In this document: positions 37,994 through 52,054 of the stretch, one piece after another
How positions within the stretch are numbered: position 1 is the first letter of the stretch
Layout of the letters: every line of letters starts with the position of its first letter
Source: an uncultured delta proteobacterium
GTDB lineage: Bacteria; Desulfobacterota; Binatia; DP-6
Direction of reading: 5' to 3'
Length of the DNA stretch: 64,000 nt
NCBI GenBank assembly: GCA_963815115.1
Contig: CAWFFN010000009.1
Span: 576,001 to 640,000, forward strand
Notes under the pieces: generated by a model
The model's database searches: none
Told to the model about the DNA's origin: nothing
What the model saw: only the letters and a program-made list of their open reading frames with translations
Made by a program: the position numbers and the translations under genes

Positions 37994-38037
37994 CGCGTTC
38001 AGGTCACACCCTCCGGCTCGTCACGTTCGGGCGGCCG

Positions 38038-38742
38038 TCAGAGCACGAGGTCCGTCCCCGAGGATCCGTGCTCCAGGATGCGCCGGCAGAGGCCCGCGAT
38101 GGTCGCGCCGGCTTCCGCGGGATCGAGCCCGGCCGGCCGGATGTTCGAGATGCACTTGCGATCGGCGTCGGTGCTCTGCGGGCCGGCGTGGAGCGTGACG
38201 TAGCAGCCCAGGCTGTCCGGTGACGCGAGTCCCGGTCGCTCGCCGATCAGGTGTACCACGAGACGCGCGCCCACGGCGGCCGCGATGGCGTCGGCCACGG
38301 CGACGCGCCCGTTGCGGACGGCGACCGGCGTGCCGAGCGCTCCGAGCGGTGCCAGCCGGTCGCACAGCGCGGGCCAGAGCCGCTCGAGGTGCGTTTGGGC
38401 CGCTCGCGCCGAGAGCCCGTCGGAGACCACGAGCTGGATGGCGGGGTCGCGCGGACTCGCGGCGCGGATGCGGTCGAGGTCGTCCGCGGCGAGACGTCGT
38501 CCGAGCGGCGGCTCGCGGATGTAGGCCAGCCGGTCGGGCGCTGCCGAGGCGGCCAGCAGGAAGCCGCGCGCGCGCAGGCGATCGAGGAAGGCGGGACTCC
38601 ACTCGCTCCACACCGCGTCGCGCGCGGCGGCGTGATCGGCCTGGAACGCGAGCCACGCGGCCGTCGGCGGCCGTGCGCCCACGCGGCCGACGCCGAGCCG
38701 CGCCGGCGTGGTGCGGCGGGCGCGCTCGAGGTCGAAGGTCAT
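38038..38742 (-). CDS. eutC: Ethanolamine ammonia-lyase small subunit
   Basis: TPARLGVGRVG, DHAAARDAV, VVSDGLSA, LIGERPGL and DADRKCISNI; in frame with eutB as assembled. Confidence 0.9.
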   Translation of the reverse strand: MTFDLERARRTTPARLGVGRVGARPPTAAWLAFQADHAAARDAVWSEWSPAFLDRLRARGFLLAASAAPDRLAYIREPPLGRRLAADDLDRIRAASPRDPAIQLVVSDGLSARAAQTHLERLWPALCDRLAPLGALGTPVAVRNGRVAVADAIAAAVGARLVVHLIGERPGLASPDSLGCYVTLHAGPQSTDADRKCISNIRPAGLDPAEAGATIAGLCRRILEHGSSGTDLVL

Positions 38743-40083
38743 GCGAGCGCGCGCGGGGTCGCCGGCAAGCGGCGTCAGGCGTCCGTCCTCCATCAGCCCG
38801 CGGGCCTCGAGCCAGGCTTCGAACTCGGACGCCGGGCGCAGGTCGAGCAGCTCGCGCAGCGCGGGCGCGTCGTGGAAGGACGTCGTCTGATAGCCCAGCA
38901 TGCAGTCGTCACCCATGGGCACCGCCATGAAGTAGTTGCAGCCGGCGGCGGCGAGCAGCACGGCGAGGCTCTCGAGATCGTTCTGATCCGCCGCCATGTG
39001 GTTCGTGTAGCAGACGTCCACCCCCATCGGGACGCCGAGCAGCTTGCCCATCAGGTGATCCTCGAGGCCCGCGCGCAGGACCTGGCGGGCGTCGTAGAGG
39101 TACTCGGGACCGATGAAGCCGACGACCGTGTTCACCAGCAGCGGGCGGTACCGCCGCGCGACCCCGTAGCAGCGCGCCTCCAGCGTCACCTGGTCGAGTC
39201 CCGCATGCGTCCCGCTGGACAGCTCGGAGCCCTGGCCGGTCTCGAAGTACCAGCGATGCGGGCCGTCGAGACGGCCGCGCGCCCGGATGGCGGCGTCGGC
39301 CTCGTCGAGGAGCGCGAGATCGATGCCGAAGGCGCGATTCGCCGCGGCCGTCCCGCCGACCGACTGGAAGATCAGGTCGAGCGGCGCGCCGGCCTCGAGC
39401 GCGCGCACCTGCGTCGTCACGTGGGCGAGGACCGACACCTGGGTGGGCGTGCCCAGGCGCTCGCGCAGCGCCTGGAGCCCGCCGGCCAGCCGCTCGACGA
39501 CCTCGACCCGATCGTCGGCGGGATTCACGCCGAGGACCGCGTCGCCGCAGCCGTAGCTGAGGCCCTCGAGGGTGGACGCGAGCACGCCGTCCAGGCCGTC
39601 GCGCGGATGGTTCGGCTGGATGCGGGTGGCGAGGCGGCCGCGCTCGCCGAGCGTGGTGCGGCCGGCGACCACGACCGCGAGCTTGCGCGCGCCGAGCATG
39701 AGGTCGAGGTTCGACATCAGCTTCGCGGCGCCCGCCGCCATCTCGGGCAGCAGGCCGGGACGCAGGGCGGCCAGCGACGAAGGAGCGTCGGCGAGCAGGT
39801 GCTCGCGCAACTCTCCGACGGTCCAGCCGGCGATGCGGCCGTAGACCTCACCGTCGAGCGCGTCGAGAAACGCGCGCGTCAGCTCGTCGCGCTCCGGCGG
39901 CAGGAGCGGCTCCTCGACGAACGTGCGGAGCGGCAGGTCCGCGAGGACGGCTTTCGCCGCGACGCGCTCCCGCGCGTCGGCGGCCGCCACCCCCGCCAGC
40001 CGGTCGCCCGACTTCTCCTCGTTCGCCTTCGCCATGACCTCGGCGAGGGAACCGAAGACGTGGCCGTGCGCGGCGAGCCGCAT
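38739..40083 (-). CDS. eutB: Ethanolamine ammonia-lyase large subunit
   Basis: VMAKANEEKSGD, RIQPNHP, YFETGQGSELS, VNTVVGFIGPEY and DVCYTNH. Confidence 0.92.
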
Positions 40084-40264
40084 GTGCGAGCCGACGATAG
40101 GGAGCGACGCGCGGCGGGGTCAAACGGGCATCCGAGATCGGCGCGTCTTCTTGCCGCGGGGATGTCGTTCTCGGGACGTGCTGACCTCACAACCGTCAAC
40201 GAGGACGGGCGGCGCCGACGTCCGACGAGCCGCACGAGAGTGACCGCGAAGGCTTCTGCCTTTC

Positions 40265-41347
40265 TTGCCCCTGCGTATTGTCTTGCTCGAGCCAGCGGGC
40301 CTCCGCGTACGGCACTACAGCCGCCGGACCGAGCGGGCCTACGTCGGATGGATCCGCCGCTACGTCCTGTTTCACGGCAAGCGCCACCCGGCCGAGATGG
40401 GGGCCCAAGAGGTGTCGCGGTTCCTGTCGTGGCTAGCCGTCGAGGGAAGGGTTAGCGCGTCGACACAGAATCAGGCGCTGGCGGCGCTGCTGTTTCTCTA
40501 CGGGCCGGTGCTCGGCGTGGAGCTGCCGTGGCTGGACGAGCTGGCCCGGGCCGCGTGCTCGCCGCGGCTGCCGGTTGTCCTGTCGCGCGACGAGGTGCGC
40601 GCCGTCCTGCTCGCGATGCACGGGATCCCGCGCCTGATGGGCGTGCTGCTCTACGGCGCCGGACTTCGCCTGCTCGAGTGCGCGCGGCTCCGCATCAAGG
40701 ACGTGGACTTCTCGGCCAACCAGATCGTGGTCCGGAGCGGGAAGGGGGACCGCGATCGCGTCACGCTCCTTCCCGGCGTGGCCCGGTCCGCGCTGGAGCG
40801 CCACCTCGAGCAGGTGCGAGCGCAGCACGCCCGCGACCTGGCAGCAGGAGCCGGCTGGGTGGAGCTGCCGCACGCCCTGTCGCGGAAGTACCCCAACGCC
40901 GGCCGCGAGTGGCCATGGCAGTGGGTGTTCCCGGCGACGCGGACCTACGTCGAGCCTACGACCGGCCAACGCCGGCGCCATCACCGGCACGAGACCGTGG
41001 TGCAACGCGCAGCGCACCGGGCGGTGCGCGAGGCAGGGTTGACCAAGGCAGCCTCGTGCCACACGTTCCGGCACTCGTTCGCGACGCACCTGCTGGGGGA
41101 CGGCTACGACATCAGAACGGTCCAGGAGCTGCTGGGGCACCGGGACGTGCGGACGACCATGATCTACACGCACGTGCTCAACCGGGGGCCGGTGGCGGTG
41201 CGGCCGCCGGTCGAGGGTTTGGTGGAGGCGGGGGCGATGGCGCGCGTTCCCCGTCTGCCGGAGGAGGCCGCGCGTTACACCGCGGGGCCACGCAGTGTAA
41301 CGCGCGTGGGATGGGTCCCGTTCGGGGGGCGGAAGGAGCGGAAATGA
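40265..41347 (+). CDS. intI: Integron integrase (tyrosine recombinase)
   Basis: RHYSRRTE, STQNQALAALLFLY, GLRLLE, GKGDRDR, IntI-specific ALSRKYPNAGREWPWQWVFPA, HTFRHSFATHLL and LGH..V.TTMIYTH. N-terminus short, start uncertain. Confidence 0.95.
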   Translation: MPLRIVLLEPAGLRVRHYSRRTERAYVGWIRRYVLFHGKRHPAEMGAQEVSRFLSWLAVEGRVSASTQNQALAALLFLYGPVLGVELPWLDELARAACSPRLPVVLSRDEVRAVLLAMHGIPRLMGVLLYGAGLRLLECARLRIKDVDFSANQIVVRSGKGDRDRVTLLPGVARSALERHLEQVRAQHARDLAAGAGWVELPHALSRKYPNAGREWPWQWVFPATRTYVEPTTGQRRRHHRHETVVQRAAHRAVREAGLTKAASCHTFRHSFATHLLGDGYDIRTVQELLGHRDVRTTMIYTHVLNRGPVAVRPPVEGLVEAGAMARVPRLPEEAARYTAGPRSVTRVGWVPFGGRKERK

Positions 41348-41414
41348 CGGTGGAATGTCGAGCAGCGGAAGGCCCGTGGGTGAGTGATGGCCCGCAAGGC
41401 CGGCCAGCCTTTGG

Positions 41415-41447
41415 GCGTTACACGGAACCGTCCAAGTCTCGTTAGGC
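41415..41447 (+). other. Putative attI site
   Basis: GTTAGGC core at 41441-41447 preceding the first cassette; GCGTTACAC copy at 41415-41423; no attC hairpin upstream. Confidence 0.6.
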
Positions 41448-41464
41448 CGACAAGAGGTAACGGA

Positions 41465-42092
41465 ATGGCACCGCGAGCGACAATCTCGCCGGAGGTGATC
41501 GCTGACGTCCTCGCGATGTCGAGGCGGCGATGCTGCGTCTGCTTCAGCCTTTCAAGCGACACGGAAGAGAAGAAGGGCCAAGTCGCACACATCGACCGCG
41601 ATTCCTCAAACAGCGCCCGCGACAATCTTGTCTTCCTGTGCTTAGACCACCACGACCGGTACGATTCCCGCACGAGCCAGTCCAAGGGTCTCACCGTCGA
41701 GGAGGTCAGGGGATATCGAGCCCAGTTGGAACGCTTCGTCGCTCAATCCCTACCCCTCTCGGACATGGACGTCGCCCGCGCGCTCCTTGCTGGACTCGAC
41801 CGGCCTGCGTTCCGCACCCCGTTTCGCGAGGAGAGCTCGTTACCACGGTTCCGGAGAGCAATCGCTGAGACGATATCGGCGATCAACACTGGAAGGACGC
41901 CGAGCGGGACCCAACTCCCATCAAAGGCCGATGTCCGAGATCCGTCCGTGTGGCTGCCAGGATCCGGACTGCCCCGTCCACATGCTCAGCGACCGAGCAT
42001 ACCGCGAAATGGATCGACGCCGGCATGAACTGCTGGTCGCAGCCCAGGCGGTCGACCCCGCATTCCCGGTGAGTTTTTATGACATGGCGTGA
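41465..42092 (+). CDS. Cassette 1: HNH-like zinc-binding nuclease-domain protein, frameshift or deletion near 41950
   Basis: RRRCCVC...QVAHID..SSN..NLVFLCLDHHD; alternative-frame C-terminus ends just before attC. Confidence 0.65.
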
Positions 42093-42096
42093 TGCG

Positions 42097-42158
42097 GCCC
42101 AACAAGCCGATGCAGCGGACGGCACTTCGCGCCGCCGCTGATCGCCAGGACGTTATGC
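42097..42158 (+). other. attC site 1
   Basis: R'' GCCCAAC, internal palindrome CAGCGG(A)CGGC..GCCGCCGCTG, R' GTTATGC. Confidence 0.9.
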
Positions 42159-42172
42159 GACAGAGGTGAGCC

Positions 42173-42640
42173 GTGCATCAAACGTTTGACCTCATCGCGG
42201 CATTGGTGACGGCGCTCCTCACCGGCAGCGAATTGGCGATCGGCGTTTTCGTCCATCCCGTACTCTCAAAACTCCAGGAGGCCGCTCACGCTGAGGCGGC
42301 CAAGCCGCTGGCTCGACTGTTGGGGAAGGTCATGCCGTTTTGGTACGCGGCCGCATTGCTCTTGGTCGTCGTTGCGTTGCTCACTCGCGCGGTCGGCACT
42401 TGGTCTTGGTGGGCGTGTCTATCGTCCGCCGCTTTACTTGCCGTTACTGTACCATTCTCGCTGATCTGCCTGGTCCCGATTAACAACCGCGTGGTCGCTT
42501 GGGATTTGAACGCGCTTCCTGGCGACTGGAAAAATGACCGCAGAAGATGGGACCAATACCACTCCATCCGAATCGTGATTCTAGTGCTGGCATCTGTTGC
42601 GATAATGGTTGCGGTCTTGTGGAAGTCCGGTGTCGCATAA
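42173..42640 (+). CDS. Cassette 2: DUF1772 (anthrone oxygenase-like) membrane protein
   Basis: Four TM segments; VPINNR..W...RRRWDQYHSIR; stop lies inside R''. Confidence 0.8.
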   Translation: MHQTFDLIAALVTALLTGSELAIGVFVHPVLSKLQEAAHAEAAKPLARLLGKVMPFWYAAALLLVVVALLTRAVGTWSWWACLSSAALLAVTVPFSLICLVPINNRVVAWDLNALPGDWKNDRRRWDQYHSIRIVILVLASVAIMVAVLWKSGVA

Positions 42641-42734
42641 CCAGCTGTTGCAGCGGACCGGGCGGGCGTTGCGGTCCTCGTGATTGGATAGTCGGTCGGT
42701 GCCCGCCCGGCCGCTGAACGTCAATCCGTTGGCC
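42635..42734 (+). other. attC site 2
   Basis: R'' GCATAAC (GTCGCATAAC is the perfect complement of the cassette start GTTATGCGAC); R' GTTGGCC. Confidence 0.9.
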
Positions 42735-42740
42735 TACCCA

Positions 42741-43541
42741 ATGAGCGCGCCGAACCCGAGCCCACCGACTCCCTTTGCCGGTACCGCGACTTACTACGCT
42801 CGACACCGTCCGCCGTATCCGGATGAGTTCTTGTCCGAACTGCGATCTCGCGCCAGGACCACTGGGTATGGTTCGCTGCTCGATCTCGCTTGCGGACCGG
42901 GCCGCGTGGCGATCCCGATGGCGCCGTACTTCAAGCGCGTATTGGCTGTTGATGTCGAAGCCGAGATGATTGCAGGCGGCCAGCAGGAAGCCAGCAGATG
43001 CGGCGTTACGAAGATCGCGTGGGCTGTGGGGCGAGCAGAGGATCTGCAACTCCCGGCCGCCTCGCTCGAACTCATCACCATCGGCGAAGCGTTCCACCGG
43101 TTCGATCAGGAGCGCATCTTGAAGCGTGCCGTGGGATGGCTTCAACGTCGAGGGTCGCTGGCCACGCTCGGCGCCGAGCCTGTGTGGCGCGGCCCGGAGG
43201 AGTGGAAGCGAGTACTCGTGGAGGTCGTGAACAAGTGGACGGGACAGTCGTTGGGTGACCCCAACGAGCATGCGTGGGGCGGTCCCATCGACGAACTCCG
43301 CACGGCAGGTCTGGAGGTGGAAGAGCGCGAGTCGATCGTTGAGCGGATATGGACGTGCGATTCGATCATCGGCTTCATGTTCTCTACATCCATCGCTTCA
43401 CGCCGGGTTCTGGGGGACCAGGCGAGTACCTTCGAAGCGGACTTACGCGGGGCGCTCCTCGAGGCGGAGCCGAGTGACCGGTTCGCTTCGATGCAGAGGT
43501 TCGGTTTCACCTTGGGCATGAAGGATGGCGGCGATGGGTGA
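42741..43541 (+). CDS. Cassette 3: class I SAM-dependent methyltransferase
   Basis: FAGTATYYARHRPPYP, LLDLACGPG and IGEAFH. Confidence 0.85.
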   Translation: MSAPNPSPPTPFAGTATYYARHRPPYPDEFLSELRSRARTTGYGSLLDLACGPGRVAIPMAPYFKRVLAVDVEAEMIAGGQQEASRCGVTKIAWAVGRAEDLQLPAASLELITIGEAFHRFDQERILKRAVGWLQRRGSLATLGAEPVWRGPEEWKRVLVEVVNKWTGQSLGDPNEHAWGGPIDELRTAGLEVEERESIVERIWTCDSIIGFMFSTSIASRRVLGDQASTFEADLRGALLEAEPSDRFASMQRFGFTLGMKDGGDG

Positions 43542-43577
43542 CGTATCGTTCCTTCGGGTGAACCTCCATCAGCGGCG

Positions 43578-43693
43578 GCCCAACAAGCCGCTGAAGCTGA
43601 CGGCCGCGGGCTTCTGCCACGCGGATGGCTTCGGATGACACGAGTCGTGGCACCTTTCACCCGCGGCCGCAGCTTAGCGGCCATCCGTTAGAT
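43578..43693 (+). other. attC site 3, R' core interrupted by IS110
   Basis: R'' GCCCAAC; AAGCTG(A)CGGCCGCGGG..CCCGCGGCCGCAGCTT; R' now GTTAGAT, reconstructed pre-insertion GTTAGGC. Confidence 0.9.
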
Positions 43694-43706
43694 ACTCTCT
43701 CCTTCG

Positions 43707-44699
43707 TCAAGCAGCCGTGTGGAACTTCTCCGCTACGAATGCCGTCCGGGTCGTGAGCATCCCGTAGATCGCGTGCAGGAGCTTGCGCATGACGGCGACG
43801 TAAGCTTGCAGCGGGGTCTTGCCGCGCGCGACGAGCTTCTCGTGGAATGCGCGCACGTGGCGATTGTGTTGGACGGCGACGAGCGCCGGCATGTACAGCG
43901 CCCGCCGGATGTGGGCGTTGCCCACCTTCGAGATGCGCGCGGGCTTGTCGACGGACGTGCCCGATTGATGGGCGCGGGGATCGAGACCGGCATGGGCCAC
44001 CCACTGCCGCACCGTCATGGACTCGGGCAGCACGAGCAGCTCGGGGAGCAGCTGGACGGCGCTGTGGGTCGCGATCCCGGGCACGGACACCAGGAGGTCG
44101 AAGGCCGTCTGCAGCGCTGCGTGCTTGCCGATGAGCGTGACGGCTTGGGCCGAGAGGAGCTCCATGCGGCGCTCGAGGTGGCGGACGTTCACGTCGATAT
44201 CGCGGCACACCACGGGGGACGCGGCTGCCGTGGCCTGCAGAGCGTGCAGGCGATTGCGTTCGCGCGTCCGCTCGACGACCAGCGCGGCGATCCGGCGCGC
44301 GATGGCGCGCAGCTCCAGCACGTGCGCCGCCGGCGGCTCCCAGGCCACGAACGGCATCCGGATGACGAAGTCCCGCAGCGCGACGGCGGCCGTCAGGTCC
44401 GTCTTGGAGCGCTGCATGAGCGCCCCCGTGAACTGCTTGATGGCCCGGGGGTTGGCCACCATCACCGCCACCCCCCGTGTGCGCTGCAACGCCAGCGCGA
44501 CGTCGAGACTGTACGTCCCCGTCGACTCCAGGACCACCCGCACCGTGCGCCCGCCCTTCGTCAGCCGCCGGACCAAGCGCTGGTGGCCGGCGGCGTCATT
44601 GTCGAAGCGCGCCATCTCGAGCCGGCGTTCATCCCGTCGCACCGCGACGTCGAGCACGGCTTTGCTGACATCGATTCCCGCCTCCGTCACCTTGCGCAT
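43707..44699 (-). CDS. IS110 DEDD recombinase/transposase
   Basis: GIDVSK (D10), VLESTG.Y (E58), KTDLTAA (D101; 4th Asp position is Ala104), SVPGI, AGLDP..HQSGTS and AVMRKL. Confidence 0.95.
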   Translation of the reverse strand: MRKVTEAGIDVSKAVLDVAVRRDERRLEMARFDNDAAGHQRLVRRLTKGGRTVRVVLESTGTYSLDVALALQRTRGVAVMVANPRAIKQFTGALMQRSKTDLTAAVALRDFVIRMPFVAWEPPAAHVLELRAIARRIAALVVERTRERNRLHALQATAAASPVVCRDIDVNVRHLERRMELLSAQAVTLIGKHAALQTAFDLLVSVPGIATHSAVQLLPELLVLPESMTVRQWVAHAGLDPRAHQSGTSVDKPARISKVGNAHIRRALYMPALVAVQHNRHVRAFHEKLVARGKTPLQAYVAVMRKLLHAIYGMLTTRTAFVAEKFHTAA

Positions 44700-44754
44700 C
44701 CTCCACCTCCAGTCCTAGTCTCGCGCTCCGGGCCCCCCGACCCTGCACCTTGCG

Positions 44755-44890
44755 CCTACCGCTCTTGTGGATGCAGGCTGCCGGCCTCGGATACTCCACG
44801 GCATAGGCGAAGAGGGCGGGGGGCCGATCTAACGAACAAGCTCACGGCTTCTAGGCAGTCCGGCCTTCCCGGAGCGCCCTCCTCGCCTAC
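44755..44890 (-). ncRNA. Predicted IS110 bridge RNA (target-binding loop plus donor-binding loop)
   Basis: Manual fold. TBL: GGCCG-GACUGCCUAG-AAGC(CGUGA)GCUU-GUUCGUUAGAU-CGGCC. DBL: CCG-UGGAGUAUCCG-AGGC(CGGCA)GCCU-GCAUCCACAAGAG-CGG. Loop segments match target and donor. Transcript ends are approximate. Confidence 0.85.
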
Positions 44891-44981
44891 ACCGTGAGAG
44901 TCCGCAGCTGAAATCCGAGATACAAGGCGGCGACGAAAGGTTCGTGGTTCAACAGTCCTTGTGTTGCAAAGGAGGTGTTCC

Positions 44982-45240
44982 GTGGACGACACCCTTCTGG
45001 TGTTCCTGGAGAAGCTGGCGAGGATTGGAGAGGATAACGACGCTCGCGAGACCGCGCGTCCCAAACGCATGCTCAACATCACGCGCGACACGGGTCGCCT
45101 CCTCTGGATCCTTATCAGGGCCATGGGCGCCACCCGGATACTGGAGATCGGTACCTCCAACGCATTCTCCACAATCTGGCTGGCCGATGCCGCACGCTCG
45201 ACCGGCGGCCGCGTCACAACGCTTGAGCTCAACCCCTTAT
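44982..45240 (+). pseudogene. Cassette 4: 3'-truncated O-methyltransferase
   Basis: SD GGAGGT; ILEIGTSNAFSTIWLADAA..GGRVTTLELNP, then homology breaks off into an attC 3' remnant. Confidence 0.75.
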
Positions 45241-45270
45241 GCAGGCTGTTAGGCGCTTGGTGGTGCTTTC

Positions 45271-45792
45271 GTGCTCGTGAACATCGCAACGATTGAGACG
45301 GAGCGGTTGAGGCTGCGGGCATTTGACGGCGGCGATCTACAGCCTTATGCCGAGATGTACGCGGACGACCTGTTCGTTCGTTATCTCGGTGGGAAGACGC
45401 TGACCAAAGAGCAAGCTTGGGAGAATATGGCCATCATACTGGGGCACTGGTCTCTGCTTGGATACGGCATCTGGGCAATTGAACGCCTAGGAACCGGTGA
45501 GCTTGTTGGAAGAGCTGGTCTATTGAATCTTCCTGGCTGGCCCGATGTGGAGGTCTGCTGGGCATTGTCCCCAAGCTTCTGGGGTAACGGATACGCTACC
45601 GAGGCGTCAAAGGCCGCTATCAATTGGGCATTCCGTGAGGCGGGCATGCGTCGCCTCATCAGCCTGATTCACCCCACAAACCAACGCTCTGAAGCGGTCG
45701 CGCTTCGTCTGGGCGAACGGTTTCGCGAACAAATCACCTTCGAAGCGAAGCCAACCAATGTATACGAAATCCTCAATGCACAACGCGCCTAA
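45271..45792 (+). CDS. Cassette 5: GNAT acetyltransferase (RimJ/RimL-like)
   Basis: IETERLRLR, FWGNGYATEA and IHPTNQRSEAVALRLG; lower GC; preceded by GTTAGGC at 45248-45254. Confidence 0.88.
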   Translation: MLVNIATIETERLRLRAFDGGDLQPYAEMYADDLFVRYLGGKTLTKEQAWENMAIILGHWSLLGYGIWAIERLGTGELVGRAGLLNLPGWPDVEVCWALSPSFWGNGYATEASKAAINWAFREAGMRRLISLIHPTNQRSEAVALRLGERFREQITFEAKPTNVYEILNAQRA

Positions 45793-45852
45793 CAAGCAGT
45801 TGCAGGTGACGCTACGCCTGTGGCGCAGCGCACCTGAACTGCGGCGTTAGGC
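45787..45852 (+). other. attC site of cassette 5
   Basis: R'' GCCTAAC; CAGGTG(A)CGCT..AGCGCACCTG; R' GTTAGGC. Confidence 0.92.
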
Positions 45853-45870
45853 GAGTCCGCCGCTCGCCCC

Positions 45871-46901
45871 ATGAAAACCAAGCTGACACACCTCGCGCTG
45901 GCAGCAACGCTGGCCCTGATCCCGACCATCGACTGTCAGGCTCAGACCGTGCCCGTTACCGTGGACAACTTCATCCGCGCCGAGTCCGACTTGTATCTCG
46001 GCGGCATTCTCAAGGACAGCGGCGGAGCCCTCGGCGAGTTCAACCATCGCCGCGAACCTGCGGACATCGGCAACCAGACGGTCATCCGCTTGAACCGCGA
46101 CACGCTCTATTCGTCGGTCGTGTTCGACCTCGATGCCGGACCGGTGACCATCACGCTGCCCGATGCGGGCCCGCGCTTCCGCTCCATGCAGGTCATCAAT
46201 CAGGATCACTACGTGCCGGCGGTGATCTACCAGGCCGGTGCCCATACGCTCGACAAAGCCCTGGTCGGCACGCGCTATGTGGCGGTGGCGGTCCGCACCT
46301 TGGTCGATCCCGCGAACCCCGAAGACGTCACGCAGGTCCACGCGCTGCAGGACGCGATCAAGGTCGAGCAGCCGGGCGGCCCCGGCAAATTCGAGATACC
46401 GGAGTGGGACGCCGCCAGCCAGAAGAAGGTGCGCGACGCGCTGCTCGTGCTCGCCACGACGATGCCCGACTTCAGGCAATGCTTCGGCACGAGAGAGCAG
46501 GTCGATCCCGTTCGTCATCTCGTCGGCAGCGCCGCCGCGTGGGGCGGCAATCCCGACAAGGATGCGACGTATCTCAACTTCACCCCGGCCAAGAACGACG
46601 GCACAACCGTCTACCGGCTCGTGGTCAAAGACGTGCCCGTGGAGCGTTCTGGTCGATCAGCGTCTACAACGCCAAAGGTTACTTCGAGCCGAACAAGGAA
46701 AGCGCCTACTCGGTGAACAACCTCACCGCGAAAAAGAGCGCGGATGGTTCGGTCGCCATCCAGTTCGGTGGCGCCGCTGATGGCGCGCCGAATTACCTGC
46801 CGATCACCCCCGGTTGGAACTACACCGTGCGCCTCTATCGCCCGAGGAAGGAAATCCTCGACGGCACTTGGAAATTTCCCGAGCCGCAGCCGGTGAAGTG
46901 A
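45871..46901 (+). CDS. Cassette 6: secreted DUF1254/DUF1214 protein, frameshifted near 46645
   Basis: [23 protein letters not shown], then [20 protein letters not shown] in another frame. Confidence 0.8.
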
Positions 46902-46938
46902 ACTCTCCCGTCATGCCGGGTTCCAGTATGAACACATC

Positions 46939-47028
46939 GGCTAACCCGCTGCAGCGAAGCCGGCGTGAGCGTCGTGGTTGGAATCCCCGCATCCCGTGCG
47001 CCGGGTCGCTGAGCTTGGGTCGGTAGGC
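46939..47028 (+). other. Degenerate attC site of cassette 6
   Basis: R'' GGCTAAC; CAGCGA..CCGGCG..CGCCGGGTCGCTG; R' mutated to GGTAGGC. Confidence 0.65.
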
Positions 47029-47037
47029 GCGCGGGAG

Positions 47038-47574
47038 ATGGCCGTGCCTGAATCAGGGTCTCGAGTGCCGACTCTGTACATTTTTTCCGGACTTCCCGGG
47101 AGCGGTAAGTCCACGCTCTCGCAATTGCTCGCGCGGCAACTCTCGGCGGTCTATTTGCGAATCGATACGATCGAGCAAGGACTACGGGAGCTTTGCTCGT
47201 TCGACGTGCAGGGAGAGGGCTACGGTCTCGCCTACAGAATTGCGTCTGACGATCTTCGCCTAGGACTGAGCGTCGTCGCGGATTCGTGTAACCCGATCGA
47301 ACTCACTCGGCGCGAGTGGGAACAGGTGGCACGCGATGCGCATGCTGACTACATCAACATCGAGGTCATCTGCTCCGACGCTCGTGAGCATCGCCGAAGA
47401 GCGGAGGTACGGGTTGCAGAAGTGTCTGGGTTGAAGCTCCCGACGTGGAGCGAGATCGAGAATCGTGAGTACCATGGCTGGACGGTCGACCGAGTGATTG
47501 TCGACACTGCGGGTAGGTCGAAGACGGAGTGTGCAAGTGACCTTCTCTCGAAAGTATCTCGGCGGCGCGCCTAG
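47038..47574 (+). CDS. Cassette 7: AAA_33-like P-loop kinase
   Basis: FSGLPGSGKST, YLRIDTIEQ and VVADSCNP. Confidence 0.85.
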   Translation: MAVPESGSRVPTLYIFSGLPGSGKSTLSQLLARQLSAVYLRIDTIEQGLRELCSFDVQGEGYGLAYRIASDDLRLGLSVVADSCNPIELTRREWEQVARDAHADYINIEVICSDAREHRRRAEVRVAEVSGLKLPTWSEIENREYHGWTVDRVIVDTAGRSKTECASDLLSKVSRRRA

Positions 47575-47667
47575 CCATTCGTTGGAGCGGACCCAACGAG
47601 GCGTCACGTCGTTTGCATGCACAAACGCTGCGCCACCTCGTCGGGCCGCTCTACTCAACTGCAGAAC
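47569..47667 (+). other. Degenerate terminal attC
   Basis: R'' GCCTAGC (mutated); GAGCGG(A)CCCAACGAGG..CCTCGTCGGGCCGCTC hairpin; no R' GTT. Confidence 0.55.
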
Positions 47668-47679
47668 GAGGGGACTCCC

Positions 47680-49095
47680 GTGAATCGAGACGACCTGTGC
47701 TACGAGGCCACGGCCTCCCTGGCGCGCCGGATCCGCACCGGGGAGGTGTCGCCGCTTCAAGCGGTCGACGCCTATCTCGAGCGCATCGAGCGTGTCGATC
47801 CACGGGTCCACAGCTACCTCCACGTGGCCGCCGACCACGCCCGCGAGGCGGCACGGCGGGCGGAGCGGGCGCTCGCGGCGGGCGGTGAGCTCGGCGCGCT
47901 GCACGGCGTTCCCCTGGCGGTGAAAGACCTGTTCGACACCGCGGGCATGCCGACGACCTGCGGATCGCCGCGCATCCTCGGCGGCAACGTGCCGACGCGC
48001 ACTGCGACCGCCGTCGAACGGCTCGAGCAGGCGGGAGCGGTGCTCCTCGGCAAGCTCCACATGACCGAGTTCGCCTTCATTGCCCACCATCCCGACACGC
48101 AGGCCGCGCGGAATCCGTGGGCGCTGGACCGCTCGCCTGGCGGCTCGTCCAGCGGCTCGGCAGTCGCGGCGGCGTGTGGGCTGGCGAGCGCGACGCTCGG
48201 GACCGACACGGCGGCGTCGATCCGGCTTCCGGCCGCGTGGTGCGGCGCCGTCGGGCTCAAGCCCACATGGGGGCGGGTGTCGCGCGACGGCGTCTTCCCG
48301 CTGGCGGCGTCATTCGACCAGGTGGGTCCGATGGCGCGGAACGTCGCGGACGCGGCGCTCCTGCTGCACTGTATCGCCGGTCCCGATCCCCGCGACCCGT
48401 CCACGCGACGACAGGAAGCGCCGCCTGCCGAGCCGGCGGCACGAGACGACTTCAAGGGTGTGCGCATCGGGTGGGATGAAGACTATGCGACGATGGGCGT
48501 TTTCCCCGATGTCGTCGCGGCCGTGCGGGCGGCACGAGGTCGCATGGAGGCGCTCGGGGCGACGATCGTCCCGGTCGAGTTGCCGGACCTGGAGACCACG
48601 GTGACGACCTTCACCAGCGTGTTCGACGTCGAGATGCGGGCCGCGCACGCGGGGCTCTACCCGGAGCGCGCTCCGGACTACGGCCCGCTCGTGCGCCACG
48701 CGCTCGCCCACTTCTCGACTCGCGACCCGCTCGTACACGTCGGGGGCGCGATCGAAGCACGCGCGTTTCGGCAGCGGATCGATCAGCTGTTCGACGCGAC
48801 CGACGTGCTGCTCTGTCCCGTGTCCTCCATCACCGCACCGCCGCGGGTCGACGAGGGGACGATCGTCGCGATCTTCGCGGACGACCATCGCAACATCATC
48901 CGCCTGACGCGCTTGACCTCTTTCTGGGACCTGGCCGCGACGCCCGCCATCTCGCTGCCGTGGGGCTTCGATCGCGATGGACTGCCGCTCGCCGTGCAGC
49001 TCGTGACCCGGGTCGGGACCGACGAAGCGCTCCTCTCGATTGCCGCGCGCCTCGAGGTGGAGGCGCCGGATCGCGGACGGCGTCCACCACTCTGA
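47680..49095 (+). CDS. Amidase signature family protein
   Basis: LHGVPLAVKD, PGGSSSGSA, LGTDTAASIRLPA and GLKPTWGRVS. Confidence 0.92.
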   Translation: MNRDDLCYEATASLARRIRTGEVSPLQAVDAYLERIERVDPRVHSYLHVAADHAREAARRAERALAAGGELGALHGVPLAVKDLFDTAGMPTTCGSPRILGGNVPTRTATAVERLEQAGAVLLGKLHMTEFAFIAHHPDTQAARNPWALDRSPGGSSSGSAVAAACGLASATLGTDTAASIRLPAAWCGAVGLKPTWGRVSRDGVFPLAASFDQVGPMARNVADAALLLHCIAGPDPRDPSTRRQEAPPAEPAARDDFKGVRIGWDEDYATMGVFPDVVAAVRAARGRMEALGATIVPVELPDLETTVTTFTSVFDVEMRAAHAGLYPERAPDYGPLVRHALAHFSTRDPLVHVGGAIEARAFRQRIDQLFDATDVLLCPVSSITAPPRVDEGTIVAIFADDHRNIIRLTRLTSFWDLAATPAISLPWGFDRDGLPLAVQLVTRVGTDEALLSIAARLEVEAPDRGRRPPL

Positions 49096-49110
49096 CCATC
49101 ACGCGGCGCC

Positions 49111-49767
49111 TCACGACGACGAACGCCACTCCGGCGCGAGACCGTCGAGCATCGCGGGCACCTCGCGCAGGTCGCGGACGACGCGAGCGCTCGAGGTATG
49201 CTCGCCCACGGCGATGAAGTGCACGCCTGCCGACCGGGCGGCGGCCGCGTCGCTCTCGGCGTCGCCGACGTAGACGGCGGCGGCGGGCGGCACGGCGAGC
49301 CTCGCGAGGCACTCCAGGATGACGTCCGGGTGCGGCTTGGGGCGTGGCACGTCGAGAACGCCGACGGCTGCGTCGAGCCAGACGTCGAGCCCGAAGCGGC
49401 GCACGACCTCGGGCACCGTGCTGCCGCGATTGGTGGCCATGCCGAGGCGCCACGAAGGCCGCAGGGTCGCCAGCACGTCGAAGAGTCCGGAGGCCGGCAC
49501 CATCAGCTCGTAGAATGGCTCGTAGTCGATGAGGCGGGCGACGCGTAGCGCCTCCTCGAGTGTCGCCGGATCTGGCCCGAACATCTCCTCCAGGACGCTG
49601 GACGCGGCCAGGAAGTGCGCCCGGCGCTCCCACTCCGCGTCCATCGGTGGGAGCCCGAGCCTCGCCCGGATCGCGTTGTAGTAGGCGACGTTTGCGTGCC
49701 AGGAATCGAACAGCACGCCGTCGCAGTCGAAGATGACCGCGCGCGCGGTCGCGGGCACGGGGCTCAC
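49111..49767 (-). CDS. HAD-superfamily hydrolase (phosphoglycolate phosphatase-like)
   Basis: IFDCDGVL, ATNR, KPHPD and YVGDAESD. Confidence 0.88.
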   Translation of the reverse strand: MSPVPATARAVIFDCDGVLFDSWHANVAYYNAIRARLGLPPMDAEWERRAHFLAASSVLEEMFGPDPATLEEALRVARLIDYEPFYELMVPASGLFDVLATLRPSWRLGMATNRGSTVPEVVRRFGLDVWLDAAVGVLDVPRPKPHPDVILECLARLAVPPAAAVYVGDAESDAAAARSAGVHFIAVGEHTSSARVVRDLREVPAMLDGLAPEWRSSS

Positions 49768-50771
49768 AGGTGGGCGATCACCGCGTCGGCGAACTCGTCG
49801 GTGCCGGCCGTCCCTCCGAGGTCGCGCGTGCGCACGGCGCCTTCCTCGAGGACGGCGTTGTAGGCCTTCTTGATGCGTTCCCCGAGCGCTTCCTCGTGCA
49901 GGTGGTTGAGCATCATCACGCCGCTCATGAGGCAGGCGAGCGGATTCGCGACGCCCCTGCCGGCGATGTCGGGCGCCGACCCGTGCACGGCCTCGAACAC
50001 CGAGGCGTCGTCCCCGATGTTCGCGCCCGGCACCACGCCGAGCCCGCCCACCAGCCCTGCGCACAGATCGCTCACCAGGTCGCCGTAGAGGTTCTCCATC
50101 AGGAGGACGTCGAAGCCGGCGGGCTTCTGCACCAGCCGCATGCAGCCCGCGTCGATGATCATCTCCTCGTACTCGATGTTGGGGTACTCCTCCTCCTGGA
50201 TCTTGCGGGCGCAGGTCAGGAAGAGGCCGTCGGTGAGCTTCATGATGTTGGCCTTGTGGAACACGGTGATCTTCTGCCGGTGCCGGCGTGTGGCGTAGCG
50301 GAACGCCCAGCGCGCGATCCGCGTGCAGCCCTTCTCGGTGGCGACCTTCAGCGACGTGACCACGCCGGGCGCCACGGCGTTCTCGATGCCGCTGTAGAGA
50401 CCCTCCGTGTTCTCCCGGACGATCACCAAGTCGACGCCGTCGAAGCGCGTCGGCACGCCGGGGAGGTTGCGCACCGGACGTACCGCCGCGTAGAGGTCGA
50501 GCGCCTGCCGCAGCTGCACGTTGACGCTGCGGAACCCCTTGCCGACGGGCGTCGTGACGGGCCCCTTCAGCGCCACCTTGTGGCCGCGGATCGCGGCGAG
50601 CGTCTCCGGGGGAAGGACGTCGCTGTAACCCTGTTCGACGGCCGTCGCGCCCGCCGGAAACTCGACCCACTGCACGTCGAGCCCCGCCGCTTCGAGGACG
50701 CGGCGCGTGGCGCCGGTCACCTCCGGCCCGATGCCGTCGCCGGGGATGAGCACGATGGTGTGCTTCGCCAT
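49764..50771 (-). CDS. Isocitrate/isopropylmalate dehydrogenase family (NAD-IDH-like)
   Basis: IPGDGIGPEV, RENTEGLYSG, HKANIMK, NLYGDLVSDL and EAVHGSAPDIAG. Confidence 0.92.
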   Translation of the reverse strand: MAKHTIVLIPGDGIGPEVTGATRRVLEAAGLDVQWVEFPAGATAVEQGYSDVLPPETLAAIRGHKVALKGPVTTPVGKGFRSVNVQLRQALDLYAAVRPVRNLPGVPTRFDGVDLVIVRENTEGLYSGIENAVAPGVVTSLKVATEKGCTRIARWAFRYATRRHRQKITVFHKANIMKLTDGLFLTCARKIQEEEYPNIEYEEMIIDAGCMRLVQKPAGFDVLLMENLYGDLVSDLCAGLVGGLGVVPGANIGDDASVFEAVHGSAPDIAGRGVANPLACLMSGVMMLNHLHEEALGERIKKAYNAVLEEGAVRTRDLGGTAGTDEFADAVIAHL

Positions 50772-50781
50772 GATCCGTCTC

Positions 50782-51192
50782 TCAGCCGAGGAGCCGGCGG
50801 TGCTCGACCATCAGACAGCGATCCTGCACCACCGCGATGCCGGCGTCCTCGAAGGTGCGAGCGGCCGCGTCGTTGCGGATGCCCGACTGGAGCCAGACGA
50901 GTGCTGGCCGCAGCGCCAGGATGTCGTCCACGTGCTCGGCCACCTGCTCGCTGCGCCGGAAGACGTCCACGACGTCCACCGGCTCCCCGATCTCGAGCAG
51001 CGACGCGCGTACCGGCTCGCCCCACAGCACCTGGCCCGCGTACACCGGGTTGGCGGGGAGGATGCGATAGCCTCGCCGGTGGAGGTAGCCGGGAACGTAG
51101 TGGGCTGGCTTCGCCGGGTCGGGATGGGCACCCAGCACGGCGATGCGACGGGCGCCGGTGAGGAGGACACGCAGGTCGTCGTCGGTGCGCAT
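50782..51192 (-). CDS. CoA-binding protein (YccU-like)
   Basis: IAVLGA, VDVVDVFRRSE, WLQSGI and VVQDRC. Confidence 0.9.
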   Translation of the reverse strand: MRTDDDLRVLLTGARRIAVLGAHPDPAKPAHYVPGYLHRRGYRILPANPVYAGQVLWGEPVRASLLEIGEPVDVVDVFRRSEQVAEHVDDILALRPALVWLQSGIRNDAAARTFEDAGIAVVQDRCLMVEHRRLLG

Positions 51193-51333
51193 CGGCTCCC
51201 ACTGGCCTACTAGATCGGGTGTACCACGGCCAGCGCCCGGGCATCACCGCCGGGCGGACGCGTCACACGACGTCGGCTCAACCGTGCTCGATGCGGACGT
51301 ACACCTGGGAGTCAGCGCGCTTACTGGACGACC

Positions 51334-51380
51334 TTGCCACGCTGCATCTCGTGCGTCATAGTGATGCATATGCTGCATCA
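51334..51380 (+). promoter_or_regulatory. TA operon promoter with palindromic operator
   Basis: TTGCCA-N17-CATAGT (51334-51362); TGATGCA-N5-TGCATCA (51362-51380). Confidence 0.7.
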
Positions 51381-51395
51381 ACGAGAGGACGGAAC

Positions 51396-51656
51396 ATGAA
51401 GACCATCACCGTGCGCAACATGCCGCGCGAGCTGGCGAAGGAGATCGACCGCCGGGCGCGGGCTGGACGGACGAGCTTGAGCAAGACGGTCGTCGTGCTT
51501 CTCGAGGAGGCGACCGGCGTCGGCCACCGAAAACCGGAGCGGACCCTGCACGATGACCTCGATGATCTGGCGGGGTCCTGGAGTCGGGAGGAAGCGGATG
51601 CGTTCGACCGGGTACTCGCCGAGCAGCGTACGATAGACCCCGAGCTCTGGAAGTGA
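51396..51656 (+). CDS. Antitoxin, FitA/VapB-like ribbon-helix-helix
   Basis: MKTITVRNMP..RA....SL; DLDDLAGSWS; overlaps the PIN gene. Confidence 0.85.
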   Translation: MKTITVRNMPRELAKEIDRRARAGRTSLSKTVVVLLEEATGVGHRKPERTLHDDLDDLAGSWSREEADAFDRVLAEQRTIDPELWK

Positions 51657-52054
51657 CGCGACTGATTGTCGACACTTCCGCGTATTCAGCTCTCATGCGG
51701 GGACACGACGGTGTCATGGCGGCTCTCCGTGAGGCTGTATCCATCGCTGTGAATCCCATCATCCTGGGGGAGCTGCGCGCCGGTTTCCTCCGAGGCGTTC
51801 ACCGGCGGAAGAACGAGGGCGAGCTACGCCGGTTCCTCGCCTCGGCGCGCGTGTTCGTGGTCGCAATCGATGTGGAGACGGCGGAACGCTACGCCGTGAT
51901 CGTCGACTCGTTGCGCGCCGCAGGCACGCCCATCCCGACGAACGACGTCTGGATCGCCGCCAGCGCGATGCAGCATGGCCTCGGTGTGCTGACGACCGAC
52001 CGGCACTTCCATCGAATCCCCCAGGTGGCCGTAGAGCACCTTGCGCCCGCCTGA
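51653..52054 (+). CDS. vapC: VapC/PIN-domain toxin
   Basis: VDTSAY, GEL, PIPTNDVWIAA and TTDRHF. Confidence 0.92.
   Translation: MTRLIVDTSAYSALMRGHDGVMAALREAVSIAVNPIILGELRAGFLRGVHRRKNEGELRRFLASARVFVVAIDVETAERYAVIVDSLRAAGTPIPTNDVWIAASAMQHGLGVLTTDRHFHRIPQVAVEHLAPA

Follow-up and report, generated by a model that had tools for sequence, protein, structure and literature searches.

What leads an insertion sequence (IS) to the recombination site of an integron? The question is raised by a 64,000-nucleotide stretch of DNA from an uncultured delta proteobacterium (Desulfobacterota; Binatia; DP-6), positions 576,001 to 640,000 of contig CAWFFN010000009.1 in assembly GCA_963815115.1; the window, below, means this whole stretch. 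Here an IS of the IS110 group lies within a four-cassette chromosomal integron array, antisense to the cassettes, and splits the R' core of one of the attC sites, attC3. We consider it very probable that this is an IS621-type element whose left end encodes a bridge RNA aimed at the attC R' core, and that this core is the usual target throughout its family. The argument draws on the family membership of the element, its ends, its target, the fold of its RNA as established by comparison, and the covariation of guides with flanking sequence, all of which were observed in this analysis.

The element occupies positions 43692-44926 on the minus strand of the window (hereafter the element strand) and is 1235 bp long, including one copy of its CT core; its junctions were read directly and its ends are conserved in relatives. 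On the plus strand, the junction at its right end (RE) reads ...GGCCATCCGTTAG|ATACTCTC... at 43691|43692 (in a shorter form of the left side, ...CCATCCGTTAG|ATACTCTC...), and the junction at 44926|44927 reads ...GAGATACAAG|GCGGCGACG..., the right side beginning GCGGCG. Read along the element strand, the two junctions are CGTCGCCGC-CT-TGTATCTCGG (left) and GAGAGAGTAT-CT-AACGGATGG (right), so CT flanks both ends. This core dinucleotide (AG on the plus strand) is found at 43690-43691 at the RE junction and again at 44925-44926, with no other target duplication in the window, as is typical of the IS110 group. Deletion of 43692-44926 regenerates CCGTT-AG-GCGGCG, that is, GTTAG|GC, so that the target on the element strand is CGCCGC-CT-AACGG, while the RE and the left end (LE), if joined, would read GAGAGTAT-CT-TGTATC. 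An initial annotation of this DNA had given the extent of the element, the AG at both junctions and the restored GTTAGGC, all of which proved exact when we re-read the sequence, and its element-strand target and circle-junction sequences agree with the re-read junctions.

Also characteristic of the IS110 group is the long upstream non-coding left end combined with a short right end: 225 nt separate the TGTAT of the LE from the ATG, and the stop codon is only 15 nt away from the end of the RE. The recombinase gene, P0001 (43707-44699, minus strand), encodes 330 aa with matches to Pfam DEDD_Tnp_IS110 (PF01548, residues 7-154, E 8.8e-22) and Transposase_20 (PF02371, residues 202-286, E 2.1e-18), and scores 172 bits (cut-off 140) against NCBIfam NF033542, 'IS110 family RNA-guided transposase'. 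Among solved structures, it matches ISCro4 (E 4.5e-44) and IS621 (E 5.4e-41) over the full length in HMMER, with the same domain order and with 36% identity to IS621 over the full length (tblastn). It thus combines the RuvC-like DEDD domain with the C-terminal Tnp domain and its Ser-Gly pair, as IS110-group recombinases do; S246-G247 is invariant and aligns with S241-G242 of IS621. The element is single-copy, with one full match in its own 6.9-Mb genome. Contigs from soil and cave metagenomes align with the IS only (from 43686 or 43690 to 44897) and leave it at 43686-43691 into unlike sequence, one of them with the flank ...GCGCGGGT+TAG (...GGGT+TAG) at the RE boundary; these contigs are independent copies of the element. 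We conclude that the sequence at 43692-44926 is an apparently intact IS belonging to the IS110 group proper, with an IS621/IS492-like recombinase.

The interrupted site, attC3, can be followed on the plus strand from 43578 to the insertion point at 43691: R'' (GCCCAAC, 43578-43584), an imperfect L''/L' palindrome, and the GTTAG of R', the final two bases of which (GC) are displaced to 44927-44928. The palindrome matches at 22 of 24 nt, with a score of 36, while 20 shuffles of the same flank reached 22 at best. The R' of the interrupted site now reads GTTAGAT, which is still within the consensus GTTRRRY. A strict regular-expression scan for attC found no sites and a fold-closure test was too strict, so a crude arm-alignment test was used instead; it is not the attC model of IntegronFinder, and it misses attC1 of this array. 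The 5' part of attC3 (43578-43618) has matches of 90-99% on short contigs in all three of the metagenome runs that carry it (two DNA, one RNA), and this type of attC is therefore widespread in soil and cave samples.

If the insertion site reflects targeting, relatives would be expected at similar sites. At the protein level, a search listed 120 homologues (75-100% identity), for the most part on metagenome contigs 1-3 kb long, and 39 of these homologues were aligned (alignment A1); no protein names are attached to the close homologues. A search of genome contigs matched 79 stretches and confirmed four loci, while a search of metagenome contigs matched at least 600 stretches, with at least 513 confirmed relatives, of which the best 80 were kept. 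The resulting set of 84 related loci plus the window (85 in all) provides 74 RE junctions with at least 8 nt of flank, 72 of them unique by the first 30 flank bases. We call loci with at least 66% identity to the window protein the close clade, and those with 53-62% identity the sister clade.

Indeed, 59 of the 72 unique RE junctions (window included) consist of the core followed by AACG, one has AAC and then C, and 12 are different. The preference is found in both clades (23 of 31 junctions in the close clade, 36 of 41 in the sister clade), and the frequency of the 4-mer AACG in the same flanks is 0.0048. The left flanks of attC-type insertions end in GC-CT or GT-CT, and therefore the uninterrupted site is CGTT-AG-RC, the attC R' core. 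A crude and conservative attC test, requiring an arm palindrome score of at least 21 with an adjoining GTT (no substitute for IntegronFinder), accepted 22 of the 43 AACG flanks that reach 100 nt, but not one of the 10 non-AACG flanks or of 860 shuffles; several further flanks are attC-like by eye. The initial annotation had proposed looking for homologous copies at attC R' cores, and these junctions answer that proposal in its favour. A relative at E≤1e-80 was found in two of 400 other genomes in a scan of the phylum. Judged from these contigs, then, the element belongs to a large environmental family, mostly of soil and sediment, whose usual target is the attC R' site.

The core itself is nearly constant. 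CT is the RE core in 72 of the 74 junctions (TT in L073 and L089) and the LE core in 30 of 31 left-end junctions of the close clade (TT in L012), while the readable right-end junctions in the same table all carry CT. In seven sister-clade loci (L056, L058, L061, L068, L070, L076 and L079) the core is AT on the LE side and CT on the RE side, and their left target guides (described below) end ...GUAU or ...GCAU, so that the core difference tracks the guide. Two further cases fall outside attC. One genome (G076) carries two copies (L098 and L100; 54% identity) inserted in the same non-attC sequence, GCGCGTCC-CT-CCGRCGG, and the copy on the Salinibacter ruber plasmid pSR118 (L095, 50.7% identity) has an AT core at CGGGAC-AT-AACGGGCC, with matching guides.

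The non-coding left end contains the elements expected of a bridge RNA. From an alignment (A2) of 59 distinct non-coding ends, excluding L013 with its long insert, RNAalifold predicts a consensus of 34 pairs in six helices, which defines a structured core of 149 nt (44726-44874, minus strand). An outer closing helix, P1 (44874-44869 with 44731-44726), encloses the target stem-loop (base 44865-62 with 44825-22, tip 44850-47 with 44841-38), helix P2 (44821-13 with 44744-35) and the donor stem-loop (base 44810-01 with 44759-51, tip 44787-84 with 44778-75). Pairing is retained in 96.7% of cells, compared to 93.3±0.3 in shuffles, and 13 pairs show changes on both sides, compared to 4.6±1.1 in shuffles (0 of 500 as high), although the structure was predicted on the same alignment used for the counting, which favours it. 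Slid controls gave two to six pairs with changes on both sides and 16-60% pairing. The stem-loops with two internal loops, a hallmark of the IS110 group, are thus supported by covariation.

The unpaired sides of these two internal loops hold four guide segments, in the order left target guide (LTG), right target guide (RTG), left donor guide (LDG) and right donor guide (RDG), all on the minus strand. The LTG, CUGCCU (44853-44858), on the 5' side of the target loop (44861-44851), has the same sense as the left flank CCGC-CT; the RTG, UUCGUUAG (44829-44836), on the 3' side (44837-44826), is complementary to CT-AACGGA with one G-U pair. In the second loop, the LDG, GAGUAUC (44790-44796, loop side 44800-44788), has the same sense as the RE end GAGTAT-C, and the RDG, ACAAG (44764-44768, loop side 44774-44760), is complementary to the CT-TGT of the LE. 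Thus loop 1 matches the target flanks and loop 2 the element ends, the core being included in each, as in other IS110-group elements. The donor guides are conserved along with the ends: AGUAUCC of the LDG is present in 30 of 31 non-coding ends of the close clade (AGCAUCC in L050), and CACAAG of the RDG is identical in 31 of 31. The same order is described for IS621, with the LTG for the left target (bottom strand), the RTG for the right target (top strand), the LDG and the RDG, and the core in each (PMC11208160, as excerpted). The coordinates of all four guides in the initial annotation are exact, and its two-loop, IS621-type layout of the left end is borne out both by the covarying fold and by the guide order. 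It had also compared the junction to the IS621 donor; the donor sequence given there is right, since the junctions of a real IS621 copy on an E. coli plasmid (L096), read directly, are RE ...ACAGTAT-CT and LE CT-TGTAT.

A further observation concerns the fold of this RNA. In the close clade, a 5' segment, CACGGUGUAGGCGAGGAGGGCG (44874-44900), can pair with the 5' strand of the donor stem (44797-44820), while in the sister clade the equivalent segment complements the LDG/RE-end sequence instead; this pairing could be an alternative, perhaps regulatory, fold. Contigs of an RNA run (X19) cover window positions 43839-43989, 44042-44192 and parts of 44783-44844, although these may be DNA or relatives and are not taken as a sign of expression.

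The guides change with the targets. The RTG UUCGUUAG (CCGUUAG in the sister clade) pairs with the right flank CT-AACG, but lineages with other right flanks carry other guides: UUGGACAG with CT-GTCCAG (CTGTCCAG) in L012 (L050 has the same guide), UUUGAUAG with CT-ATCAA/C (CTATCA...) in L035, L040, L043 and L044, and, with one mismatch, GUAGUUAG with CT-AACCAC in L047. Similarly, the LTG is AAAUGACU where the left flank is ...ATGA-CT (L043 and L044), UUCCUUCU at CTCCTTC-TT (L012) and GGACCCCU at GACCC-CT (L023). For 29 unique sites, the LTG matched the left flank at 103 of 174 non-core positions, compared to 70.2±4.8 when the flanks were permuted (0 of 20000 as high), and for the 22 unique attC-type sites there were 75 matches compared to 60.3±3.8 (p = 5e-5). 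The covariation of guide and target that the initial annotation named as a check is therefore found in both target guides. In attC-type elements the RTG is near constant while the LTG match is partial, at one to five of six non-core positions; a partial LTG fits a target with a conserved right half (the attC) and a variable left half (the start of the next cassette).

We examined the relationships of these lineages in a quick IQ-TREE tree (78 rows, SH-aLRT support, midpoint root). The close clade forms a group of 36 rows (support 99), within which the ATCA-targeting loci L035, L040, L043 and L044 (support 98) are nested among attC-targeters; L045, L012 and L050 together, and L047, branch near the base of the close clade, and both deeper groups are nearly all attC-type. 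Because the sister clade uses the same site and the non-attC lineages fall inside the close clade or at its base, attC targeting looks ancestral to this large family, with several natural retargetings away from it. The initial annotation had described a left-end-bridge-RNA IS110 element retargeted to the GTTRRRY core; the aim at the attC R' core stands, but a single retargeted element does not, given the 36 of 41 sister-clade junctions at the same site.

A number of observations weigh against our interpretation. The attC test was passed by barely half of the AACG flanks long enough to be scored (the 22 of 43 above), and the LTG of the window matches only three of six non-core positions of its left flank. 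The permutation tests ignore kinship among the elements. Folded alone, the 149-nt core has a z of -1.22, with 20 of 200 shuffles folding as well, and the minimum free energy structure of the whole left end favours a different, long stem, in competition with that of the donor loop; the support for the RNA fold is therefore comparative, not thermodynamic. No Rfam family was found at E≤1 in window positions 38000-52000. No allele with an empty site was found in 30 relatives (four of the same genus), nor was the cassette downstream of the IS found there, and no excision or circle joints were found in the contigs of four sequencing runs, although contigs cannot show rare forms.

The recombinase raises a separate question of activity. 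The active site of IS621 is made up of D11, E60, D102 and D105, together with S241, and mutation of any one of these abolished recombination (PMC11208158, in the text excerpted). D10, E58 and D101 are present in P0001, but the fourth residue of the DEDD tetrad is Ala104 (codon at about 44388-44390 of the window), which stands opposite D105 of IS621; in the alignment with PDB 8wt6 the P0001 and IS621 segments are 'sktdltaav' and 'nktdtvdar'. This Ala is native to the clade: all 39 aligned homologues share T103-A104-A105, and K-T-D-x-x-A-A occurs in all 40 sequences of at least 66% identity (L011-L051 among the loci), the retargeted lineages included. By contrast, 42 of 44 sister-group loci have K-[TS]-D-x-x-D-A (the region is missing in L014, and L063 has no motif match), while L093, a partial sequence, gives another reading of the motif. 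The ratio of nonsynonymous to synonymous substitution rates (dN/dS) has a median of 0.165 over 350 pairs of 27 full-length close-clade genes, and that of the window gene is 0.09-0.23 with all others except L042 (0.92); on these ratios the Ala104 clade is under purifying selection. Evidently, the clade moved and was retargeted after it lost the Asp. We considered Ala104 as a lesion and rejected this, in view of its fixation at 66% identity and above, the purifying selection and the later movement and retargeting; the proposal in the initial annotation to repair Ala104 to Asp thus loses its ground.

The family may nevertheless be active while the window copy is a stranded, inactive relic, an explanation that we think possible, although on balance unlikely. 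The copy has three private substitutions, namely T29M and W45R, at positions identical in all 38 others, and F286H, at a position with F in 35 of 38 others, and these also count against our interpretation; together with its single-copy state, they mean that this particular copy may be inactive. Only two CGTTAGRCNGC sites are left in its genome, and the missing circle signal and empty site described above would also be expected of a relic. Against this, the open reading frame (ORF) is uninterrupted over its full length, neither the ends nor any of the four guide segments are damaged, the copy is 96% identical to L015 with a dN/dS of 0.09, and rare excision would escape detection in contigs. As an observation on the genome itself, the two CGTTAGRCNGC sites in 6.9 Mb compare with 20 and 26 for a reversed control pattern.

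It is also conceivable, but improbable, that the recombinase recognizes the folded attC hairpin or a protein-bound site and that loop complementarity is incidental to this. In its favour, the targets have a palindromic structure, like those of the relatives that target repetitive extragenic palindromic (REP) sequences; many attC-type insertions match the left guide poorly, and the constant RTG pairing extends over only about 6-8 bp. Against it, the lineages that left attC changed exactly those guide bases that match their new flanks, and core variants covary, with TT cores accompanied by GAGTGT donors (L073 and L089) and an AT core in the Salinibacter copy; moreover, experiments have shown that IS621 and ISEc21 depend on RNA, according to excerpts of PMC11208160 and PMC11187229.

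Homing to attC has been described before, in the parts of the literature covered here, for the IS1111-family elements ISPa21, ISPst6, ISKpn4 and ISPa25, in which the non-coding region and its seekRNA lie downstream of the gene (PMC11187229, PMC11208160), with seekRNA guidance shown for ISKpn4 and ISPst6 (PMC11187229). The IS1111-attC elements and the group IIC-attC introns are stated to insert 'near the 5'-end' of attC, antisense to the cassettes (PMC3001079, excerpted). The IS1111-attC elements resemble the window element in having a recombinase of the DEDD superfamily and in RNA-guided, site- and orientation-specific insertion into attC. That the window element is simply a member of the described IS1111-attC group (ISPa21, ISPst6, ISKpn4), and nothing new, is hardly credible and was rejected, since it shares with them the superfamily (PF01548/PF02371), the attC habitat and the antisense orientation (PMC3001079), but has its 225-nt non-coding region and RNA upstream and just 15 nt downstream, where their guide RNA is described as downstream (PMC11187229, PMC11208160), has no exact inverted match longer than 6 nt in its terminal 60 nt, where they have longer sub-terminal inverted repeats of 7-17 bp, has donor ends equal to those of IS621, and is inserted at GTTAG|GC in the 3' R' core, 4-5 nt past the integron integrase (IntI) crossover, the two sites being compared by description only.

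The group IIC-attC introns (for example, S.ma.I2) are likewise RNA-guided and specialized for attC, with bottom-strand insertion antisense to the cassettes (PMC3001079, excerpted), but they are retroelements with a ribozyme and a reverse transcriptase, and they insert between a gene and its attC, on the 5' side, and not in R'. A literature search, with ISfinder and the papers' supplements outside its scope, found no description of an IS110-type element with an upstream RNA at attC, in agreement with the initial annotation, which was aware of no described case.

The closest likeness is to IS621, and beyond the protein it extends to the bridge RNA in the left end upstream of the gene, the CT core, the guide order, the near-identical donor ends (AGTAT-CT-TGTAT in L096 versus GAGAGTAT-CT and CT-TGTATC in the window), the AGAU that follows the RTG in both, and a TTGAC in the RE that suits a circle-junction promoter. 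The differences are that IS621 targets REP sequences, while the attC family targets the attC R' core of integrons; that the published layout has a 5' stem-loop and two further stem-loops, to which the attC family adds the outer P1 and a helix enclosing the donor loop; and that D105, essential in IS621 in the excerpted account (PMC11208158), is Ala in the close clade.

If the IS621-type interpretation is correct, the circle, its promoter, the dependence on RNA and the chemistry can be inferred from IS621. The element would excise as a circle, by homology with IS621, and the joining of RE to LE would create a promoter from a candidate -35 box, TTGACG (43705-43710, minus strand, overlapping the stop codon), in the RE and a candidate -10 box, TATCTC (44917-44922, minus strand; TATCTT, TATATC, TATCTC or TACCTC in relatives), in the LE. 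In 71 of 74 junctions TTGAC keeps the same spacing to the RE end, and the spacer between the two boxes, which would form a promoter only in the joined circle, would be 17 nt; this arrangement appears to fit the circle-junction promoters described for IS621 (PMC11208160, in excerpt). Transcription of the left end from the junction promoter would yield a bridge RNA of about 150 nt. Its donor loop (GAGUAUC/ACAAG) would hold the joined ends GAGTAT-CT-TGT, and its target loop (CUGCCU/UUCGUUAG) would hold GC-CT-AACG, which is how the attC R' core CGTT-AG-GC reads on the bottom strand. Strand exchange by the recombinase at the CT core would follow, and the element would therefore always insert in the same direction, antisense to the cassettes, at a point 4-5 nt on the 3' side of the IntI crossover (G|TTAG^GC). 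Across the family the right guide is aimed at the conserved CT-AACG, and the left guide drifts with the variable start of the next cassette.

Insertion at this point probably has consequences for the integron. Since every RE ends ...TAT-CT, an inserted element leaves the upstream attC with a consensus R' (GTTAG+AT = GTTAGAT), and the position of the insertion, 3' of the IntI crossover, makes the IS formally the first 1.2 kb of the next cassette. IntI presumably cleaves the attC bottom strand at AA|C. By homology with IS621, the recombinase would cut that same strand at CT|AAC, 2 nt from the IntI cut; IS621 is described as cutting the top strand directly after CT (PMC11208158, excerpted). We raise, as a rather speculative idea, that the family uses the integron as a vehicle, in that IntI could still excise and re-insert 'IS + cassette' as one unit, which, if true, would give the IS a second, integrase-driven route of spread; in the close clade this would take place with a DED-A active site. 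A comparison of locus pairs for copies with the same left flank and different right flanks, the trace expected of such hitch-hiking, found none; in all 15 informative pairs the right flank is shared (related attCs), and their left flanks differ wherever both are readable.

The surrounding integron has an integrase gene, a likely adjacent attI and an array of cassettes ending in four attC sites. The integrase gene intI (40265-41347, plus strand) scores 431.7 bits against TIGR02249 (cut-off 265) and has Pfam Phage_integrase and SAM-like domains; a likely attI crossover, GTTAGGC (41441-41447, plus strand), is suggested by its position between intI and the first cassette. On the plus strand, attC1 (42097-42158; R'' GCCCAAC, R' GTTATGC) was called by eye, being under the threshold of the arm-alignment score, while attC2 (42635-42734; R'' GCATAAC, R' GTTGGCC) has a score of 30 and attC4 (45787-45852; R'' GCCTAAC, R' GTTAGGC) was found by the same test. 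Since attC4 lies beyond the IS, the cassette array continues past the insertion. The cassette ORFs are all on the plus strand and encode, in order, an unknown protein, an anthrone-oxygenase-like protein, a SAM methyltransferase and, after the IS, an O-methyltransferase fragment and a GNAT acetyltransferase.

Three side observations concern the integron. In integrons intI is usually divergent from the cassettes; here it lies upstream of the array in the same direction as the cassettes. An extra GTTAGGC (45248-45254), which no attC palindrome precedes, directly follows the O-methyltransferase fragment (positions 21-82 of the 204 in Pfam Methyltransf_3); this region has the appearance of a truncated cassette joined to the GNAT cassette. 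A second integron integrase (389 bits) is present in the same genome at C5:519851-520699.

As the main system of gene capture, integrons underlie multi-resistance and much environmental adaptation, and elements that home to attC reshape cassette arrays. Those described so far, in the excerpted literature, are the IS1111-group ISs and the group IIC introns, both on the 5' side of attC. The family to which the window element belongs is a second, independent lineage of attC-homing, RNA-guided recombinases, at the other end of attC; it homes beside the integrase crossover, and it is close kin of IS621, the prototype for bridge editing. With at least 513 confirmed relatives in metagenomes, the lineage is abundant in soil and sediment, and it offers a natural series of guide/target pairs that includes several natural retargetings. 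Its Ala104 clade is a natural replacement of an Asp that is essential in IS621, and bears on the composite RuvC-Tnp active site.

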